IMG/VR virus record: IMGVR_UViG_3300030330_005305
Coordinates: 1 to 30,849 of that record
Origin: a virus
Lineage: Duplodnaviria > Caudoviricetes
Reading direction: 5' to 3' (one strand)
Length of the DNA: 30,849 nt
Shown: positions 3,881 through 30,644 of the stretch, in pieces
How the letters are laid out: each line of letters opens with the position of its first letter
Numbering within the stretch: the stretch's first letter is position 1
Program-made: the position numbers and the translations under genes
Notes under the pieces: model-generated
Seen by the model: only the letters and a program-made list of their open reading frames with translations
Told to the model about the DNA's origin: nothing
Database searches by the model: none

Positions 3881-4035
3881 TCCGCCTCCTCTGGAGCTTC
3901 TTCTAGAAGCTCTTCTAGTTCAAAAATAACAGGCCACCAAGATTCTGCTGTTGCGAAGAGTTCTTCCTCTTCGCATTTTTCTATACGCTTCAAGATCAAG
4001 CGTATCTTTAGTTGTAATTCTTTTTTTGTTTTCAT
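3877..4035 (-). CDS. Small hypothetical protein (52 aa, start revised to MKTKKELQ)
   Basis: CAACAACAACGGAGATAAAAATG leader at 4033-4055; the longer ORF-track start lies inside the promoter. Confidence 0.7.
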   Translation of the reverse strand: MKTKKELQLKIRLILKRIEKCEEEELFATAESWWPVIFELEELLEEAPEEAE

Positions 4036-4090
4036 TTTTATCTCCGTTGTTGTTGATGTAAAGAAGATTAGTTTTTCTTTACATATATCT

Positions 4091-4138: not shown

Positions 4139-4176
4139 AAAATAAAATAGCCCGATCGAGGAATGATCGGGCTATT
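4139..4176 (-). terminator. Intrinsic terminator after the lysis genes
   Basis: AATAGCCCGATC-N7-GATCGGGCTATT stem followed by a T-rich tract on the minus strand. Confidence 0.8.
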
Positions 4177-18029: not shown

Positions 18030-18067
18030 AAAACAAACAATGCGCGCCCTCTTCGGAGGGCTTTTTT
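18030..18067 (+). terminator. Intrinsic terminator; copy 1 of a 38-bp exact direct repeat
   Basis: AAAACAAACAATGCGCGCCCTCTTCGGAGGGCTTTTTT with a UUCG loop; identical to 21676-21713. Confidence 0.9.
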
Positions 18068-18073
18068 GTGTCG

Positions 18074-18102
18074 TCGACAATTTGGATCGAATAAGCTATG
18101 AT
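18074..18102 (+). promoter_or_regulatory. Candidate portal promoter TCGACA-N17-TATGAT
   Basis: Lies just downstream of the terminator and about 20 bp upstream of the portal ATG. Confidence 0.5.
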
Positions 18103-18123
18103 GAAAAAGAGCAGGAGTTTATC

Positions 18124-19800
18124 ATGAGCAATGCCATTGTCAAGCGGCCTAATTTTATTATACGTCTATATCGATCTACCATCATCAGAGCATATCAACG
18201 GCTCGTCAGTAATCCCAAAGAGCCAGAGCATGGCGCATCGTACGCGGCTCCCTATGGAGTGAGGCAACACTTTAGCGCTGAATCGTCTATGAGTGCATAT
18301 AGCGGTCATGCTTATACGCACGCTTGTGCTTCTCGTGCCTCTCAAGATCTGGCCGCCCTTCCTCTTCGAGTTGTACGTGGTCGAGGATCCAATGCAGAGC
18401 GCATCGAGGAACATCCATTTTATGATTTAATGGATCAACCGAATACAACGACTGACGGCTATCTATTTCGTGAGCAACTACTTATCGATCTCATGCTCAG
18501 TGGAAACTGTTACATATTGATTGTGGGGCCGTTAAATAATCCCTCTTCGCTGTTCCGATTGCATCCTGAAAATGTTGAGGTAATCACGAGCCAGAGTCAA
18601 GGGCTGACAGGTTACAAATATACTGACGGCGGCGTGTCTGTTCAGTACCCGATCGAGCGCGTTCTTCACTCTCGCAATGCAAGCTGGGCAAATGGTGCCA
18701 GTGGCGAATTGTACGGAACAGGAGCGATCGAGAGCCTTGCAAGAGAGATTAACGCCGATATTAACGCACAGAAGCTAGCAAGTGACACAAGCGCTCAAGG
18801 TCGTCCTGATATACTCCTATCACCCAAAGATGATGCAGATATATGGGGAAGAGAACGCCGTCGAGAGATACTAGACTCGTATCGGAATATGAGCGATCGG
18901 GGCGGTGCTATGGTGCTCAGTGGGCAAGTAGATGTTAAGCCGCTCAACCTATCGCCTCGAGAAATGGAGTTCAGGGCATCGCGCGAGATGGCCAGAGAGA
19001 ACATTTCAGCCGTGCTCGGTGTTCCGTCGACTGTGTTGGGATTGCCGGACGCAAATTATGCCACTGCTCGACAGGCAAATTTGACGTATTGGGACATCCA
19101 GAGCAAGCGCGGCCGCAAGATGGAACTGCTATTCACTCGTATTGTTAAAATGTTCGATGATCGTCTATACATTCATATAGATTACTCTGAGGTTGAGGCA
19201 TTCCAAGATCTTAGAAACAGCAGACTAGAGCGCATCGAGAAGCATATTTTAATCGGCGGCATATCTCCGTCAGAGGCTTATGCTTATGAAGGACTAGATG
19301 ACTCTCCGCTGAAGGGAGCTACTGAAAAAGTAGAAGTTGAGGACAAGGAAGAAGAGGAGCGCAATCTTGAGTCTGTCCATCGATTATTCGAGATCTTAGA
19401 GACAAGAACAGAGAAGGCCAAAGAAGACGAGCTAGCCAAGATCGGAAACAAAAGAGAGGCATTTAATGAGATGCCGGCCGCGTCGCAGAAAGGTGTCGAA
19501 AACAAAGCAAAGGAGCATAACGAGGAATATGGAGACGATCCGAAGCGCAAGACAACAAAATTCACACTGGCCGTTGTTTGGTGGCGTGGAATTGGCGCGT
19601 ACAAGAACAACCCGCAAAGCGTCCGCCCATCCGTGAAAAGCCCCGAGCAGTGGGCAATGGCGCGAGTTAATAGCTTCCTCTATGCGCTTCGCAATCAGAA
19701 ATATCGATCAGGGAAGCACGACACTGATCTGCTTCCTGCCGATCATGATATGAAGGAAAAAAAAACTTTCTTGCAAATATTGAGCTTAGGGGATCAGTAG
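18124..19800 (+). CDS. Portal protein (HK97 family) with extra C-terminal domain (start revised to MSNAIVK, 558 aa)
   Basis: AGGAG RBS; HP..DL..QPN, L.LSGNCY, L..LHP..V, LSPREMEF, I.AV.GVP...LG and ANYATA motifs. The ORF-track start lies in the terminator. Confidence 0.93.
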   Translation: MSNAIVKRPNFIIRLYRSTIIRAYQRLVSNPKEPEHGASYAAPYGVRQHFSAESSMSAYSGHAYTHACASRASQDLAALPLRVVRGRGSNAERIEEHPFYDLMDQPNTTTDGYLFREQLLIDLMLSGNCYILIVGPLNNPSSLFRLHPENVEVITSQSQGLTGYKYTDGGVSVQYPIERVLHSRNASWANGASGELYGTGAIESLAREINADINAQKLASDTSAQGRPDILLSPKDDADIWGRERRREILDSYRNMSDRGGAMVLSGQVDVKPLNLSPREMEFRASREMARENISAVLGVPSTVLGLPDANYATARQANLTYWDIQSKRGRKMELLFTRIVKMFDDRLYIHIDYSEVEAFQDLRNSRLERIEKHILIGGISPSEAYAYEGLDDSPLKGATEKVEVEDKEEEERNLESVHRLFEILETRTEKAKEDELAKIGNKREAFNEMPAASQKGVENKAKEHNEEYGDDPKRKTTKFTLAVVWWRGIGAYKNNPQSVRPSVKSPEQWAMARVNSFLYALRNQKYRSGKHDTDLLPADHDMKEKKTFLQILSLGDQ

Positions 19801-21011
19801 GAGATAAGGATCCTACGAACTTTCCGAACGATGGCGAAAACAAAGAAGTGGCACTTCGCAATAGTGAATACAAGCGCTTCCCGTGGAAAGAGGCGCAGGC
19901 TCTAAAAGAAGAGTGGCCTGAGATATGGAAGAAGGGCGGCAATATATTAGGCAATACGCAATACAACCGCCTCAAGCCGATCGCTTCGCGTCCTAGTAGT
20001 GTAGCGAGAACGAGAACAGAGGAAAAGGCCATTCGACTGCGTGAAGCATGGGCAGCTAGACACCTCAAGGACTTTAGGCTCGCGGGCGTTGTTGCTCAGA
20101 TAAAATGGCTTGTTGTTGGTAGTCGCGGCTTGTCTCATATGAGAGCAGTAATCAGCGAGGAGAAGCAGAGACTTAGGAACAAGAAGAGCTTCGAATTAAA
20201 GAGCGATGAGCAGCGCATGGCATATTGGAAAGGATGGATCGAGCGCAAAGTGGAGCCGATAGAACAGGGCTTTTATCGTGTCGCTATGCGATACCTACAA
20301 GGAGCAAAAGCAAGATACCTTCGACGGCTTGACGGCATTATATCAGCGGCGAAAAATGCCACTGTTGACGAGACACGGGCGGTCGATTGGGTTGCTTTAT
20401 TGGCAAAAGATACAGAAGCTAGGATCTTGAGAGACACGCTCGGTAAATATTGGTTCGACTCGTGGATATTGACAGGCAATGACACGATAGAGGATATATA
20501 TCAGTTGCTCGGAAAAGATCGCCCGCCTGATGTTAGATTCGGGGATCGACCCATCGCAGAGAGATCGATCGGTGCTCTCGTTCGACAGATCGATGAGACA
20601 ACGAGAAAGAACATCAAGAAGATCGTGAAGCAAGGGATCGATGAGGGTAAAAGTAACAGAGAGATAGCCCTAGATCTAGAGAGTGAGGCCGCTTTCAGGC
20701 CATCAAGAGCACGCCTGATAGCGCAGACAGAAGCTACAAGTAGCATCAACAGAGCAACAAATCAGGCCTATGTTAGAGTGCAAGAAGAAGAAGGAATTAA
20801 GATACTGAAACAATGGATAGCGAGTGGAGACGATAATGTTAGAGAGCTTCATAAAGTGCTCGGGAATGATGCAACGAAAGGAATCATTCCAGCGGATAGT
20901 GACTTTTCGATTTCTGGTTATGTAGGGCCCGCTCCAGCGGCTTTCAGTAATGCGCCTGAAATGAATATAAATTGCCGATGTACAATAGCACCGATCATAA
21001 TCGACGAATAA
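19764..21011 (+). CDS. Mu gpF/SPP1 gp7-like head morphogenesis protein with extra N-terminal domain, in the -1 frame relative to portal
   Basis: RARLIAQTE, KQWIA..D..VR..H and INCRC motifs; frame open from 19749; no convincing RBS before GTG 19848. Confidence 0.85.
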   Translation, partial: NFLANIELRGSVGDKDPTNFPNDGENKEVALRNSEYKRFPWKEAQALKEEWPEIWKKGGNILGNTQYNRLKPIASRPSSVARTRTEEKAIRLREAWAARHLKDFRLAGVVAQIKWLVVGSRGLSHMRAVISEEKQRLRNKKSFELKSDEQRMAYWKGWIERKVEPIEQGFYRVAMRYLQGAKARYLRRLDGIISAAKNATVDETRAVDWVALLAKDTEARILRDTLGKYWFDSWILTGNDTIEDIYQLLGKDRPPDVRFGDRPIAERSIGALVRQIDETTRKNIKKIVKQGIDEGKSNREIALDLESEAAFRPSRARLIAQTEATSSINRATNQAYVRVQEEEGIKILKQWIASGDDNVRELHKVLGNDATKGIIPADSDFSISGYVGPAPAAFSNAPEMNINCRCTIAPIIIDE

Positions 21012-21078
21012 ATCTACTCTCTATGATCGCGATAAATAGGGCGTTGTAGCGAAAGATAAAAATAAATTAAAATAATAC

Positions 21079-21110
21079 TTGTATTATGCGTATTATGATG
21101 ATAATATAAT
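21079..21110 (+). promoter_or_regulatory. Candidate promoter (TTGTAT...GATAAT/TATAAT) containing TATGCGTATTATGAT
   Basis: AT-rich region with a variant of the shared 15-mer, upstream of a two-gene cassette; hexamer spacing is not canonical. Confidence 0.5.
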
Positions 21111-21141
21111 AGAGTAACCAACAACAACGAGGATAAATAAA

Positions 21142-21366
21142 ATGACTAAGCAAGAAGCCAAGCAAAGACTCGCAAACAGGATCAACAAATACACGTCAAC
21201 AGAGATTAAGAAAATTATTCTTGATATGGTCAAGCCGATGCGAGAATATACAGAAGAAGAAAAGATCGTTAGAGCGTTTCTTTTTGATGCTTACGAAAAC
21301 AAGACAAGTGAGGATCAAGTTGATCAGCTTCTTGATTACGTAGAACCAATCGAATGGCCAGCATAA
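21142..21366 (+). CDS. Small hypothetical protein (cassette)
   Basis: CAACAACAACGAGGATAAATAAAATG leader. Confidence 0.8.
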   Translation: MTKQEAKQRLANRINKYTSTEIKKIILDMVKPMREYTEEEKIVRAFLFDAYENKTSEDQVDQLLDYVEPIEWPA

Positions 21367-21396
21367 ACAACAACACAACAAACAACGGAGTATAAA

Positions 21397-21672
21397 ATGA
21401 AAGTATTAATTGAAAAATACAGAGGCCAGTTCAAAGAGGCCTCCAACAAAGAAGAGGGCGCTCGTATATACGACAACCTTCTTCACGAGATTCAAGAGCT
21501 ATCTTGGATCGTTCGTCCAGATATACGCCCCAATCAATACGGGTGGCATCAGGAGTACAGAAAAGGAGAGCTTAATAAAGAGAAGTATTTCTCTTTATTG
21601 ACAGAAGCTAAAGAAGCCCTCAACATCGTCACCGAGGGCGGCCCATTTGATAGCTTCATATCGGCCCTATAA
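21397..21672 (+). CDS. Small hypothetical protein (cassette)
   Basis: AACAACGGAGTATAAAATG leader. Confidence 0.8.
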   Translation: MKVLIEKYRGQFKEASNKEEGARIYDNLLHEIQELSWIVRPDIRPNQYGWHQEYRKGELNKEKYFSLLTEAKEALNIVTEGGPFDSFISAL

Positions 21673-21675
21673 AAC

Positions 21676-21713
21676 AAAACAAACAATGCGCGCCCTCTTC
21701 GGAGGGCTTTTTT
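21676..21713 (+). terminator. Intrinsic terminator; copy 2 of the 38-bp direct repeat
   Basis: Identical to 18030-18067. Confidence 0.9.
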
Positions 21714-23772: not shown

Positions 23773-24207
23773 TCATTCCTCATCAAGATCGATAACAGGC
23801 AAGGATATCGGCTTCAATCTCTCTTGTTGTATTCTCACTTCTTCCATTAAGGCCGGCACATCTAGACCGTCTTGATTTATCGTGATCTCGACGGGAGCCT
23901 TCTCTTCTTTTGTGTAGCCGTGTCTTCGTTCAAGTAAGAACATCGCCGCTCTAACATCGCCATCATTCATAGCTGTATGCAGACAAGACAGCGAGCGGAT
24001 CGCGCTCATAGCTTCCGCGCGTTGAAACTCTCCATAAAAATCCAAGAATTGTCCGCTTTTCGCCTCTCGCCCTCGTTTGAGCCACTCATAGAGGATAGAC
24101 TCCGAAATGCCGGCATATTTGCAAGCGATCGCCCTTGTGCATCCAAGTGATGTAGCTTCGAGGATCTTGCGCTTATATTTATCAGTGAATTTACTCTTGC
24201 GGCCCAT
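23773..24207 (-). CDS. terS: Terminase small subunit (start revised to MGRKSKFT)
   Basis: GR.SKF...AC.YAGIS....YEW HTH and AAMFLLERR motif; upstream of terL. Confidence 0.75.
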   Translation of the reverse strand: MGRKSKFTDKYKRKILEATSLGCTRAIACKYAGISESILYEWLKRGREAKSGQFLDFYGEFQRAEAMSAIRSLSCLHTAMNDGDVRAAMFLLERRHGYTKEEKAPVEITINQDGLDVPALMEEVRIQQERLKPISLPVIDLDEE

Positions 24208-25798
24208 GTTCCCTCTCACGCTTTGCCCACTCAATCCGGCCTTCAATGATCGGATAGTAATCTTCTGTCATCTCGCATCCGATAGCGTCGAAGCCCTCAA
24301 GACACGCAGCTACGGCCGTTGTTCCAGATCCTAAGAAGGGATCGAGCACTGTTCCGTTTGGAGGCGTGATCAGTCGACACAGCCAGCGCATAACGCCGAT
24401 CGGCTTGACTGTCGGATGGAAGTTTTTAACATGATCCGCCGTTCTTCCTGCGCCCGCTCTTGGGTTGTCGAGGCCGGCAGATCCTTCGTTGCGGTCGACA
24501 GCCTCAAAGACTGATTTGCCTTGCAAATGCTCTAGTCCGGCCTCACGCTCAGATCTCGATGCTTTCGGACATTGATAAACATTAGCGGGCCATCTTCCTA
24601 TTTTCTGACCTTCTGATTGATTACTTTTTATGTCTCCATAATAAAAAATGGCTCTACCTGCTTGGCCAGTTGAGTGAGTGCTGGTTTCTTCTTGAGGGCC
24701 TACCCAGCACGGATCGCCATATGCAAATCTACAAGCGTCTATGTTGATCGCTCCTGTATTGTGCTTCAATACATTCTCAGCGACTGACAAGCCCTTCTCC
24801 AGTGGCTTTCGTGCAAGGATCGCAGGCTCGTAGCTAGGCTTCAATGCGGTGCCCCAGCCTTGCCACTGTGCGGCCTGTGGAGTGGCTGGCTTTGTTATAT
24901 CTACCTCAACAGCGCTACTCCCACCAATAGTATGCCTGTTCTTGTCATTTGGATTTGCTATGCCAGACATTTTTGTTCCAACAACTTTCCGCTCCGCTCC
25001 GAAATGTTTATCAATTCCTTTTGATACATCATGACTCTTCGGAAAGCCGGAGAAGTACAGCCAGCTTATCATATCGCGGATCTCGAAGCCTGCATTTGCA
25101 ATCGCAACGCCCATCGGATGCACTGTCCTTGTAGCGCTGAATGCGACCATATGCCCGCCGTGCTTGAGTACTCGATAGCACTCTTTCCACAACTCAACAT
25201 TGAAGGCGATCCCGCTATCATCCCAGCCTTTCCCCATAAATCCGATCTCGTAGGGCGGATCGGTGACGATGCTATCGATCGAGTTGTCTGGGATCTCTTT
25301 TAATTTCTCCAAACAATTGCCCTTCAGCAGTGTGAAGTTAAAATCACTTTGAACGGGCGCAGGAGGCTCGACAATCGATTCTTCTTCCTCATCGCTATAT
25401 AGATCATCAAGTATGCCATCAAGTTCGTCCTCGTCCCATCCTAGGCCGCTAAGATCCTCATCTTTCAACTCCTCGAAGAGTTCTTGTAGTGCATCTTCGT
25501 CCCAGTCTGCTCGTTCTCCGATCTTGTTGTCTGCCAGCATCAAGAGCTTTGCGTCAACGGGATCGAGATCCATAAATCGCACTGGCACTTTTGACAGCCC
25601 GAGGCTCTGCGCCGCCTTATATCTTGTATGCCCAGCGATGATAACAGAGTCTTCTTTTCTGGCGATAATCGGGCTAGCAAATCCGAAGCGCTTGATCGAT
25701 CCCGCTAGCTCTTCGATGGCGTGATCATTGATCCGTGGATTATCTGGATGGGGTGTTAATGTATCGATATCGATATACTCTGCTGCAATCTCACTCAT
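24191..25798 (-). CDS. ParB/Srx-domain and DNA N6-adenine/N4-cytosine methyltransferase fusion
   Basis: N-terminal NPR...SIKRFGF..PI...IIAGHTR..AA; catalytic DPPY precedes HPTVKP and the SAM-binding DPFLGSGTT (beta-class order). Confidence 0.93.
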   Translation of the reverse strand: MSEIAAEYIDIDTLTPHPDNPRINDHAIEELAGSIKRFGFASPIIARKEDSVIIAGHTRYKAAQSLGLSKVPVRFMDLDPVDAKLLMLADNKIGERADWDEDALQELFEELKDEDLSGLGWDEDELDGILDDLYSDEEEESIVEPPAPVQSDFNFTLLKGNCLEKLKEIPDNSIDSIVTDPPYEIGFMGKGWDDSGIAFNVELWKECYRVLKHGGHMVAFSATRTVHPMGVAIANAGFEIRDMISWLYFSGFPKSHDVSKGIDKHFGAERKVVGTKMSGIANPNDKNRHTIGGSSAVEVDITKPATPQAAQWQGWGTALKPSYEPAILARKPLEKGLSVAENVLKHNTGAINIDACRFAYGDPCWVGPQEETSTHSTGQAGRAIFYYGDIKSNQSEGQKIGRWPANVYQCPKASRSEREAGLEHLQGKSVFEAVDRNEGSAGLDNPRAGAGRTADHVKNFHPTVKPIGVMRWLCRLITPPNGTVLDPFLGSGTTAVAACLEGFDAIGCEMTEDYYPIIEGRIEWAKREREHGPQE

Positions 25799-26538: not shown

Positions 26539-26744
26539 TATTTCAGAGCCTTGATAGCTACTCTGATGAGTGCCGAGCGGCTTGTATTGTATTCAGCGCA
26601 CAACTCGTCTATATCTCGAAGCGTTCCCGCGTCAATAGTGATGTTCAAGGGCTTAGTGCGCCCTGAGGCCTTTACGCGGCTGTTAAAGGCCTCATTTCGG
26701 CTAGGAACAGGGATAGATTTGCTGGTTGTTTTTAATACTTTCAT
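26538..26744 (-). CDS. Ribbon-helix-helix (CopG/Arc-like) DNA-binding protein
   Basis: PLNITID...RDIDELC....TSRSALIRVAI pattern; CGGAGAACAACAATG leader. Confidence 0.85.
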   Translation of the reverse strand: MKVLKTTSKSIPVPSRNEAFNSRVKASGRTKPLNITIDAGTLRDIDELCAEYNTSRSALIRVAIKALK

Positions 26745-26756
26745 TGTTGTTCTCCG

Positions 26757-26894
26757 TTATTTTTGGTTGATCCACTGAGCAAGAGCTTGGGCGCAGTAGA
26801 AGCACACGAACCCTCCCTCTGTTTTGTGAAAAGAAAAGCAGTCAGGATTGTTTTTCTTTGCTTCGTATCGTGTTTTTGAGTCTGAAAATCTCAT
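26757..26894 (-). CDS. Small hypothetical protein (45 aa, MRFSDSKTRYEAKK...WINQK; not in ORF track)
   Basis: AACGGAGAATAAAAATG leader; fills the gap between its neighbours exactly. Confidence 0.7.
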   Translation of the reverse strand: MRFSDSKTRYEAKKNNPDCFSFHKTEGGFVCFYCAQALAQWINQK

Positions 26895-26906
26895 TTTTAT
26901 TCTCCG

Positions 26907-27149
26907 TTACATGTACATTGCATAAGTGTTTTTATCGAGGGCGATAACATAGCCCTTCTCGATGTCTTCAGATAATAAAGGCTTCCAGTCTCCTTTGTAA
27001 TCTATTACATCAAGATACCATTCCTTGATCCCGTCAGGATCAAAGATGTAGACATCGCCGTTATTCCATGCGTCGATAGCTTCCTTCTTTGTTATTTTAA
27101 ATCCTGCACTGAGTGCGAGGATTAAAGCCAATTGTTTTGTTTTATTCAT
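26907..27149 (-). CDS. Small hypothetical protein
   Basis: CAACAACGGAGAACAACGATG leader. Confidence 0.8.
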   Translation of the reverse strand: MNKTKQLALILALSAGFKITKKEAIDAWNNGDVYIFDPDGIKEWYLDVIDYKGDWKPLLSEDIEKGYVIALDKNTYAMYM

Positions 27150-27484
27150 CGTTGTTCTCCGTTGTTGATAATTATTTTTTTGTTTCCTCTGAAGCCAATT
27201 GTAGGCAATTCGTCATCAGGAAACAATGATAATGATTTTAGTTTTTTTCCTTGCTCCTCTAGCATAATCTTGATCTCATCCAGCCCTCTTGCTCCCATGT
27301 ATTTTATTGATAGGACATCTTCTTCTGTTTTCAGCAAGAGATCGTCTATCGATAATATATTGTTTCGCATCAGTAGATTGCTTACCCTACCCGAAAAGAT
27401 CCAAAAGTCCTCTGGAGGCTTCTGTTCTTGTAGCTCTTTTTTCATCGAAGCAATTGCCGTCAATAACATAGCTCTTTTGTTCAT
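27146..27484 (-). CDS. RNA polymerase alpha-CTD-like protein (start revised to MNKRAML, 112 aa)
   Basis: SGRVSNLLMRNNILSIDDLLLKTEEDVLSIKYMGARGLDEIKIML aligns by eye with alpha-CTD ([45 protein letters not shown]); GGGGG SD-like sequence. Confidence 0.8.
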   Translation of the reverse strand: MNKRAMLLTAIASMKKELQEQKPPEDFWIFSGRVSNLLMRNNILSIDDLLLKTEEDVLSIKYMGARGLDEIKIMLEEQGKKLKSLSLFPDDELPTIGFRGNKKIIINNGEQR

Positions 27485-27488
27485 GTTG

Positions 27489-27794
27489 TTACCCCCTGTA
27501 ATCGTATGCTGTTGATTGAACATAAAAGTCGGCTTCATAACAAACAGAGCACGAGCCAGCCAAGTGGAGCTTATTCGGTGCTCTAAATTGTCCGTCGTTC
27601 GAGTAACGATATAGAGTTCCAGATACAAAAGCATAAAGAAACTCATCAGTATCGTTCTCTTCAATCCATTGATCGATCGAAGCGCTAATATATCGCTTTG
27701 CTGCGTTGATAGATTTAAATCCATTCTTTCCAAAGAAGCCCCTAACCCGTACAGACCCCGCTTCTTTCGATATTTCATGTTGTTTGTATTTCAT
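27489..27794 (-). CDS. Hypothetical protein
   Basis: CAACAACGGAGAATAAAATG leader; tiles between its neighbours. Confidence 0.75.
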   Translation of the reverse strand: MKYKQHEISKEAGSVRVRGFFGKNGFKSINAAKRYISASIDQWIEENDTDEFLYAFVSGTLYRYSNDGQFRAPNKLHLAGSCSVCYEADFYVQSTAYDYRG

Positions 27795-27795
27795 T

Positions 27796-28026
27796 TTATT
27801 CTCCGTTGTTGTCTTTTTGTTCTAGAACGATAATTCTGTTCGCTCCGATATCGAAGCTCAATGGGTGAGGCACACGAGCAACCCCAAGCGGAAGATCTTC
27901 GCCCTCTTCGTCTTTGGTGCAAGCCACACCAAAGAACTCGATTATAAGATTTGTTGCTTCTTCGAGCAGAGCAAGCTCATACTCGAAGTCTACATCATTC
28001 ACAATTACTATATCGCAAGTCATCAT
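27796..28026 (-). CDS. Small acidic hypothetical protein
   Basis: CAACAACAACGGAGAAATAAAATG leader. Confidence 0.75.
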   Translation of the reverse strand: MMTCDIVIVNDVDFEYELALLEEATNLIIEFFGVACTKDEEGEDLPLGVARVPHPLSFDIGANRIIVLEQKDNNGE

Positions 28027-28049
28027 TTTATTTCTCCGTTGTTGTTGTT

Positions 28050-28337
28050 TTATCTTGTTACTCTTGAGATAATTCTAAGTGCATTTTTCAGTGAAGAAAC
28101 ATTCTGATCATTTGCATAGCCGATCTCACCGAAATAAGCTAATTCAGCTTCATTTCTTGAAAGTGTAGTAGATTTGTATACTCTTCCTTTAGTGGTAATG
28201 ATGTACACATCATTTTTAATGATAAAATTTGCGTGTATATCACCGTGGATTTTCTTGTTAAATTCTCTAGTAGCTTCTTCTACTAGAAGCTCTTGGGTAG
28301 TATATTCTTCTGTTGGGTTATTGAGAGTGTAGATCAT
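28050..28337 (-). CDS. Hypothetical protein (first gene of the main early cassette array)
   Basis: AACAACAACGGAGAAATAAAATG leader directly after the promoter. Confidence 0.8.
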   Translation of the reverse strand: MIYTLNNPTEEYTTQELLVEEATREFNKKIHGDIHANFIIKNDVYIITTKGRVYKSTTLSRNEAELAYFGEIGYANDQNVSSLKNALRIISRVTR

Positions 28338-28367
28338 TTTATTTCTCCGTTGTTGTTAACTATATAT

Positions 28368-30344: not shown

Positions 30345-30574
30345 CGTTGTTCTCCGTTGTTGATTTTGCTGTATAACCAATCCGGCATGATGATTGTTGC
30401 TGTATATTCTCCTTGATCGATCACATCAGTGCACGATCTTGGGATCCACACGTTTTTTCCGTTGATCGTGAATTGCTGCGCCTTTGGCACTGATACCTGC
30501 TTTCCATTAATCCACTTTACGATCGATCGGTATGAGTTTCTGATCCACTTACAATTCTTAATAGTAATTGTCAT
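30341..30574 (-). CDS. Small hypothetical protein
   Basis: CAACAACAACGGAGTAATAACATG leader; extended -10 TGtTATGAT upstream at about 30607-30615. Confidence 0.75.
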   Translation of the reverse strand: MTITIKNCKWIRNSYRSIVKWINGKQVSVPKAQQFTINGKNVWIPRSCTDVIDQGEYTATIIMPDWLYSKINNGEQR

Positions 30575-30644
30575 GTTATTACTCCGTTGTTGTTGGTTGC
30601 TCTATAATCATAACATATATAATATGTATTGTACAGTATATAAA

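Follow-up and report, generated by a model that had tools for sequence, protein, structure and literature searches.

A portal gene in the genome studied here stops shortly after a run of nine adenines (A9), and the -1 frame that overlaps its end carries a MuF domain. Is the run a place where the two frames are joined, and if so, by which enzyme and to what end? A portal is regarded as a ring whose subunits are all identical, and an earlier note on this DNA proposed that recoding at the run would place MuF covalently on only a few of the 12 subunits. The window, by which we mean the whole 30,849-nucleotide stretch analysed, is a complete circular phage genome with a 114-nt terminal repeat, derived from an uncultured marine phage; genes for terminase, portal, protease, capsid and tail-tube were identified in it, and the samples that match it best are mostly labelled marine metagenome. 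No RNA data set is listed among the matching samples, which carries no information about expression.

Organization of the portal-MuF junction

The features of the junction are as follows; set 1, mentioned under the GTG, is the collection of junctions described in the next section.

18124..19800, + strand: portal ORF, 558 amino acids, preceded by AGGAG (18113-18117); made by default from the A9 allele
19450..19752, + strand: domain X, about 100 amino acids, with a weak likeness to DUF5824 that falls below the cut-off
19749..21011, + strand: -1 frame (linker, domain Y, MuF), open for 420 codons; entered by one added A or by a -1 shift, giving 962 amino acids
19757..19765, + strand: A9 run, the proposed slip site and the longest A/T run in the 30.8-kb genome
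19781..19783, + strand: TGA terminating the third frame (A8 or A11 transcripts, 552-553 amino acids)
19788..20192, + strand: domain Y, a conserved helical domain (model pLDDT 89) whose conserved motif starts 20 codons before the GTG
19797..19816, + strand: hairpin of 6 bp (arms 19797-19802 and 19811-19816), overlapping the codons of a conserved V-G-D-x-D-P-T
19798..19800, + strand: TAG terminating the zero frame, 11 codons past the heptamer
19848..19850, + strand: GTG (Val), the annotated ORF start; a start codon in the window only, among the seven split junctions of set 1
20607..20987, + strand: Phage_Mu_F (SPP1 gp7-like) domain, E 2e-13

The sequence bears out the layout described in the earlier note: the heptamer A_AAA_AAA occupies 19758-19764 within the A9 run and is followed by 11 codons and the TAG, and the -1 frame opens after a TGA at 19746-19748 and stays open up to 21011. 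When the product was computed for different run lengths, A8 gave 552, A9 558, A10 962 and A11 553 amino acids. Hence one added A replaces the 558-aa protein by a 962-aa portal-X-Y-MuF polypeptide.

The 558-aa product is an HK97-type portal, since it exceeds the curated cut-offs (PF04860, 154 bits against 39.1; TIGR01537, 116.6 against 112.05; Phage_portal profile match, E 7e-45). Its portal domain spans residues 66-387 and is followed by an acidic linker and domain X. Domain X scored 17.2 bits with PF19141 (DUF5824), for which the gathering score is 25, and was not assigned to that family. Directly downstream of the portal, PF04233 matched with 51.5 bits (cut-off 29.6), which identifies a MuF1/SPP1 gp7-like domain; TIGR01641 gave 36.5 bits on the same domain, slightly below its cut-off of 39.65. 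No C-terminal toxin domain, as in MuF polymorphic toxins, was found, and the frame stops 7 residues past the MuF match. The family phrog_2662 matches both frames of the window, the portal and the MuF one.

Domain Y had no match in Pfam, NCBIfam, PDB sequences or Foldseek PDB (E<=0.001), and in the Atlas it fell only into unnamed viral clusters, under 0.9. Its cultured matches were confined to Salinibacter phages, at 39% (Salinibacter ruber phages, e.g. OR896190.1, 18268-18600), which are a possible handle on its function. The modules also occur in other arrangements. X and Y are found together in non-portal proteins (L076-L078, L085-L090), Y is located after MuF in L080-L083, and near-identical portals may differ in having or lacking X (e.g. 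L046/L048, L033/L163), which suggests that X is a module swapped by recombination.

The A run is conserved between portal and MuF

Two sets of relatives were compared. Set 1 comprises 72 distinct junctions before domain Y, the window included, and one of its source searches supplied the best 80 of 382 matches. Set 2 came from portal-anchored searching that is independent of Y, with the best 80 of 269 matches listed, and contributed a further 35 distinct loci in which sufficient DNA followed the portal. The counts omit 15 loci without the upstream module, loci with X-Y or MuF-Y in other proteins, 4 loci in which fewer than 300 nt follow, and 7 distinct portals whose identity is about 25%.

Among the matches listed, a run of A9-A11 was present between portal and MuF in 87 of the 107 distinct loci, 77 of them in frame and 10 split; the run-bearing loci are related, so that this count overstates the number of events and does not stand for 87 independent ones. 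In the linker before Y, at least nine A were found in 53 of the 72 listed set 1 junctions (41 A10, 3 A11 and 2 A9 in frame, and 7 A9 split), and 4 of the remaining 19 listed junctions have an A9 or A10 in the preceding linker, the one before X, bringing the total to 57/72. In set 2 at least nine A lie between portal and MuF in 30/35 of the listed loci; three of these (L241, L247 and L253) are split at A10, all with a -1 offset, and one of the three joins the portal directly to MuF. The run is found in portals that share as little as 55% identity, whether X or Y is present or not. In part of set 2 it lies about 15 residues inside X, and in one clade an A9 within domain X encodes a Lys-Lys-Lys which the protein itself may require.

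The earlier note had asked whether the run and the frame offset recur in relatives. Both do: among the matches listed, nine other distinct junctions share the -1 offset of the window, and all 10 split junctions would be restored by one added A, while none of the 107 loci needs the loss of one. A close counterpart is L193 (portal 87% identical), which has the flanks of the window with A10, in frame.

In the part covered, 20 of the 107 listed loci show no run of at least nine A; 7 belong to a deep outgroup and the others are scattered among run-bearing clades. A mixed ring would thus not be universal, and a constitutive fusion appears to work too. Of the seven omitted portals of about 25% identity, one carries A10 at the portal-MuF linker.

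Some loci depart from the common pattern. A distant portal-MuF fusion with 25% portal identity (L015/L016, at about 3709/3567) has A10 just before MuF, and six similar loci do not. Seven loci (L246, L249, L252, L257, L258, L278 and L279) have two separate A9-A10 runs per portal fusion gene, and such genes could give three product lengths. In L060, an A10 fusion that is in frame elsewhere, the frame is broken at 4172-4175 within the MuF domain, which represents either an error or a damaged allele.

The A9 state of the window is reproduced in separate assemblies

A homopolymer error in sequencing or assembly, the true gene being an A10 in-frame fusion, would account for the split, and A10 in frame is the commonest state (41/72 set 1 junctions among the matches listed). 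The earlier note had called for a check of A9 against A10. One contig spans the run in each of four sequencing runs from four studies (4/4), with 0 other letters and 0 gaps; these are contigs, which drop rare variants, and all four runs are possibly sources of the window DNA itself. In addition, a separate assembly record (L172) has a 230-nt junction identical to that of the window. Split alleles also recur in separate assemblies of distinct genomes (the L004 group, L022/L196 and L241/L247). An error confined to a single assembly was therefore rejected as far as contigs can show, and we regard an artefact as extremely improbable.

The frame downstream of the run is under selection in split lineages

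Split forms do not constitute one clade (AU test, p 6e-54, with 7 split rows among 17). In quick trees and FastTree trees, three split lineages were placed among in-frame ones in the subclade of the window, and further split forms appeared in another clade; domain X has been gained and lost, so that recombination is likely. In the L004 group, four distinct genomes in which A9 is fixed over a dS of 0.29-0.56, Y-MuF has a dN of 0.008-0.024. In L022/L196, which also keep A9, Y-MuF has a dS of 0.20 and a dN of 0.002. Strong purifying selection (dN/dS 0.01-0.05) thus acts on the start-less Y-MuF frame in these two split lineages.

The earlier note doubted the GTG at 19848 as a start, and its doubt was justified. 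In the other six split junctions of set 1 the same position reads GTA, GTC or GTT, and the first start codon is found only at Y residue 32-79, inside the confidently modelled helical fold. We rejected an independent GTG start for MuF, because among the seven set 1 splits it exists in the window only. With purifying selection on Y-MuF and no conserved start, passage through the run is the most likely way in which the split lineages express Y-MuF. Taken with the conserved run and the recurrent -1 offset, these results make the recoding into a portal-X-Y-MuF fusion that the earlier note predicted likely.

The length of the run appears to be selected

An A run of at least nine was found once in 111 kb of domains, and the portal and MuF domains, 51 kb in all, contained none; in other flanking DNA of the loci there were 3 A/T runs of at least nine in 288 kb, and 5 in 136 kb. 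Outside the run about 53% of the Lys codons are AAA, and AAA-AAA accounts for 16/128 and 13/51 of the Lys-Lys pairs, being the rarest or a minority pair. Among the matches listed, the longest run in the scored stretch was never 7 or 8 (0/72 and 0/33). The run begins in all three codon phases, and the next base may be G, C or T. The rarity of such runs elsewhere, the Lys codon use, the missing A7 and A8 and the free phase point to selection on run length. Judged from these comparisons, in which relatedness was corrected for only in part, the run appears to be conserved beyond what the protein needs and independently of codon phase.

Stops in the alternative frames gave a mixed picture that supports selection weakly. 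With one A added, the frame at run sites stops early (median 5 and 7 codons, against a background of 11), and run-less junctions have a median of 8; with one A removed, the median distance to the stop is 7 codons in set 1 and 19 in set 2.

Slippage on the run would yield two portal subunits

Coding sequence with an A/T run of at least nine, one of the features of programmed transcriptional realignment, is present at the locus as A9. The step at A9 agrees with the length of the RNA-DNA hybrid (9-10 bp) and with the run length from which polymerases slip (A9), as given in passages of PMC5009743 and PMC1088944. We infer that the host RNA polymerase slips on the run and adds one A to part of the transcripts, so that the gene would yield both the 558-aa portal-X and the 962-aa portal-X-Y-MuF. 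Short and long subunits would then co-assemble into one mixed portal ring, the purpose being that MuF is brought into the head by some of its subunits only. With A9 and a -1 offset, the window would by default make the short form and obtain the fusion by slippage; most relatives, with A10 in frame, would by default make the fusion, and would obtain the short form when slippage brought a nearby stop into frame. We put at about 0.6 the probability that polymerase slippage on the run generates portal subunits of both lengths, whichever of the two is the default.

Two expectations of the earlier note have to be revised. It had held in-frame fusions in relatives to speak against recoding; such fusions were found in most relatives, but the A run is kept there, so that recoding is not refuted by them. 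As most relatives are in-frame fusions that nevertheless retain the run, the element looks like a two-way switch rather than a device that keeps MuF always rare. With slip rates of 15-55%, as published in a passage of PMC4256274, long subunits would be a minority in the window and a majority in the in-frame relatives. Placement of MuF on only a few of the 12 subunits is thus plausible for the window, but probably reversed in the in-frame majority, and is not general.

The same two products and the same junction peptide would result if ribosomes underwent a programmed -1 shift on A_AAA_AAA or A_AAA_AAG. It would fit the -1 offset of all 10 split junctions among the matches listed, and the window offers an in-frame X_XXY_YYZ heptamer, although any A9 does so automatically. 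Many in-frame relatives read GAA AAA AAA AAG and have a stop in the -1 frame some two codons further on, like Escherichia coli dnaX as described in PMC3711429 (section 23). The heptamer, however, needs just 6-7 A, whereas runs of A7 or A8 are missing from the scored linkers and most runs are A9-A11, and neither the codon phase nor the following base is constant. Judged by the length of the run, slippage of the polymerase is favoured over a ribosomal heptamer. No Shine-Dalgarno-like element or hairpin is conserved at stimulator distance: in a scan for upstream and downstream stimulators nothing conserved was detected, and hairpins had a median z of -0.76, with 9/53 junctions below -2. The hairpin at 19797-19816, which the earlier note had described as further away than typical stimulators, lies 31 nt away and overlaps conserved codons, and both of its third-position pairs are possible in 11/50 junctions; it is not supported as a stimulator. 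One third-position pair is formable in 26/50 junctions compared with 18 after shuffling (p 0.005, not corrected for relatedness), a weak hint of a ribosomal event. On balance we consider ribosomal frameshifting unlikely.

The split and fused forms might also coexist without any recoding, if the run mutated during replication and the population were a mixture of fused and split genomes, each making one form. The state of the run flips repeatedly on the tree, and L193 has A10 between the flanks of the window; SPP1 gp7 is dispensable for assembly (as stated in a passage of PMC6316719), so that a phage with MuF switched off could be viable. Such phase variation is very unlikely in view of the fixation of A9 across the four L004-group genomes and L022/L196 with Y-MuF still under purifying selection, and of the lack of an out-of-frame one-base gain among the 107 loci listed; the contigs of the four runs contain no length variant, with the limit that contigs drop rare variants. 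We find it just as hard to believe that a Lys-rich linker is kept for protein reasons, the splits being tolerated deletions with Y-MuF made from an internal start or by reinitiation. Lys-Lys-Lys at domain borders, the GTG of the window and the existence of run-less in-frame fusions would agree with it, but the codon use described above does not favour AAA-AAA for Lys-Lys, and in the other six set 1 splits the first start lies inside the conserved fold of Y.

Comparison with known recoding and portal systems

The comparisons are with the systems as described in excerpts of the cited papers. The closest precedent is dnaX tau/gamma (PMC1088944, PMC5009743, PMC3711429 section 23), a case of programmed transcriptional realignment with an in-frame A9 in Thermus thermophilus and an A10 with a -1 offset in two-ORF dnaX genes. 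As in dnaX, a run of A9-A10 lies late in the gene, the short and long forms share their N-terminus and are (here by prediction) incorporated into one oligomer, stops in other frames lie near the run, and in-frame and -1 split layouts both occur in one family. Unlike dnaX, which is a cellular replication gene, this is a phage head gene, and slippage has been measured in T. thermophilus dnaX whereas here it is predicted. Transcriptional frameshifting also operates in T6SS tssM (PMC4256274), at A11 in Citrobacter rodentium and A9 in Yersinia pseudotuberculosis, where a structural subunit is likewise made in two lengths from a poly-A run and the default is short in one species and long in the other. 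The protein is unrelated, C. rodentium needs a +1 shift, and the run is rare among tssM genes, in contrast to its near-universal presence in this phage clade.

Constitutive portal-MuF fusions, with both parts in one polypeptide as here, are encoded by Microbacterium phage clusters EA3/EA5/EA8 and EB (PMC7302621; PHROG 2662, 859). In the passages of PMC7302621 on them no slip site is described, whereas here a conserved run lies between the parts, along with the extra domains X and Y. In SPP1 gp6-gp7 (PMC5576092, PMC6316719) the gp7/MuF domain enters the head through the portal, as proposed here, with 1-2 copies per SPP1 capsid; the SPP1 proteins come from separate genes and bind non-covalently, unlike the covalent fusion predicted here. 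Recoding fixes the ratio of plain to C-terminally extended virion or assembly proteins in lambda G/GT, SPP1 gp17.1/17.1*, the T7/T3 coat and PSA (PMC5009743, PMC6316719). Those phage frameshifts are ribosomal and affect capsid, tail tube or tail chaperone genes, unlike the portal gene considered here.

No report of recoding between portal and MuF was found in a literature search whose scope ended short of supplements (with possible GeneTack-type clusters) and most subscription papers. The word "portal" is absent from the main text of PMC3711429 and from the first 300,000 of the 449,034 characters of PMC5009743, and the excerpts of PMC4066793, PMC7911831 and PMC10299305 added nothing on portals. 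The window locus is a real feature and, on sequence grounds, a probable recoding site with a mechanism of a known type; what the locus adds is that the in-frame majority retains the run and that the polarity has flipped repeatedly. If the reading is correct, a conserved portal slip site would add a new recoded virion protein, and would explain how a portal-MuF fusion gene gives fewer than 12 MuF per head. It would also mean that a productive truncation can hide within an unbroken ORF, a situation hard to detect by comparison according to a passage of PMC1088944. The window (A9, split) and L193 (A10, fused), with near-identical flanks, form a natural allele pair for studying mechanism and ratio. 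More tentatively, and at slightly less than even odds, tailed phages may widely use host polymerase slippage on poly-A to build mixed portal rings with a MuF tail on some of the 12 subunits; the tract would be hidden in many genes annotated as in-frame fusions, and one A gained or lost would flip the dominant form, providing an evolvable dial for the stoichiometry of head cargo.

Genome context and other observations

No RNA polymerase was detected among the 28 window proteins scanned with Pfam, and the window is therefore presumably transcribed by the host enzyme. A 210-aa ORF on the - strand (27146-27778) has an RNA polymerase alpha C-terminal-like domain (PF03118, E 1.5e-9) and is a possible transcription modulator. 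No host was assigned, because the three MAG contigs that carry relatives are short and point to different phyla. Among cultured phages, no record covers 80% of the portal ORF, and the 30 best-ranked matches are at most 29% identical.

At 24191-25798 (- strand) a ParB-N domain is fused to an N6/N4 DNA methyltransferase; this ORF lies directly upstream of an HTH gene (23773-24246), which in turn precedes the large terminase gene. A 33-nt motif is repeated at 4031-4063, 26741-28366 and 30571-30603, at the starts of many small - strand ORFs, several of which also share similar upstream promoter-like repeats; the motif is likely a shared early-gene expression signal.

The portal genes form a cassette (18030-21713) with its own promoter-like site, flanked by two identical 38-bp terminator-bearing direct repeats:

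18030..18067, + strand: 38-bp direct repeat with terminator-like hairpin, copy 1, left border of the portal cassette
18074..18102, + strand: sigma70-like promoter match upstream of the portal gene, 10/12, a match to the consensus only
21676..21713, + strand: 38-bp direct repeat with terminator-like hairpin, copy 2, right border of the portal cassette

In the window and its subclade (L001, L004, L005, L008, L022, L026, L031, L130) the cassette points the opposite way to the terminase-protease-capsid genes, and it is co-oriented with them in the other clades seen. The subclade with the inverted cassette contains all 7 A9 split junctions of set 1.
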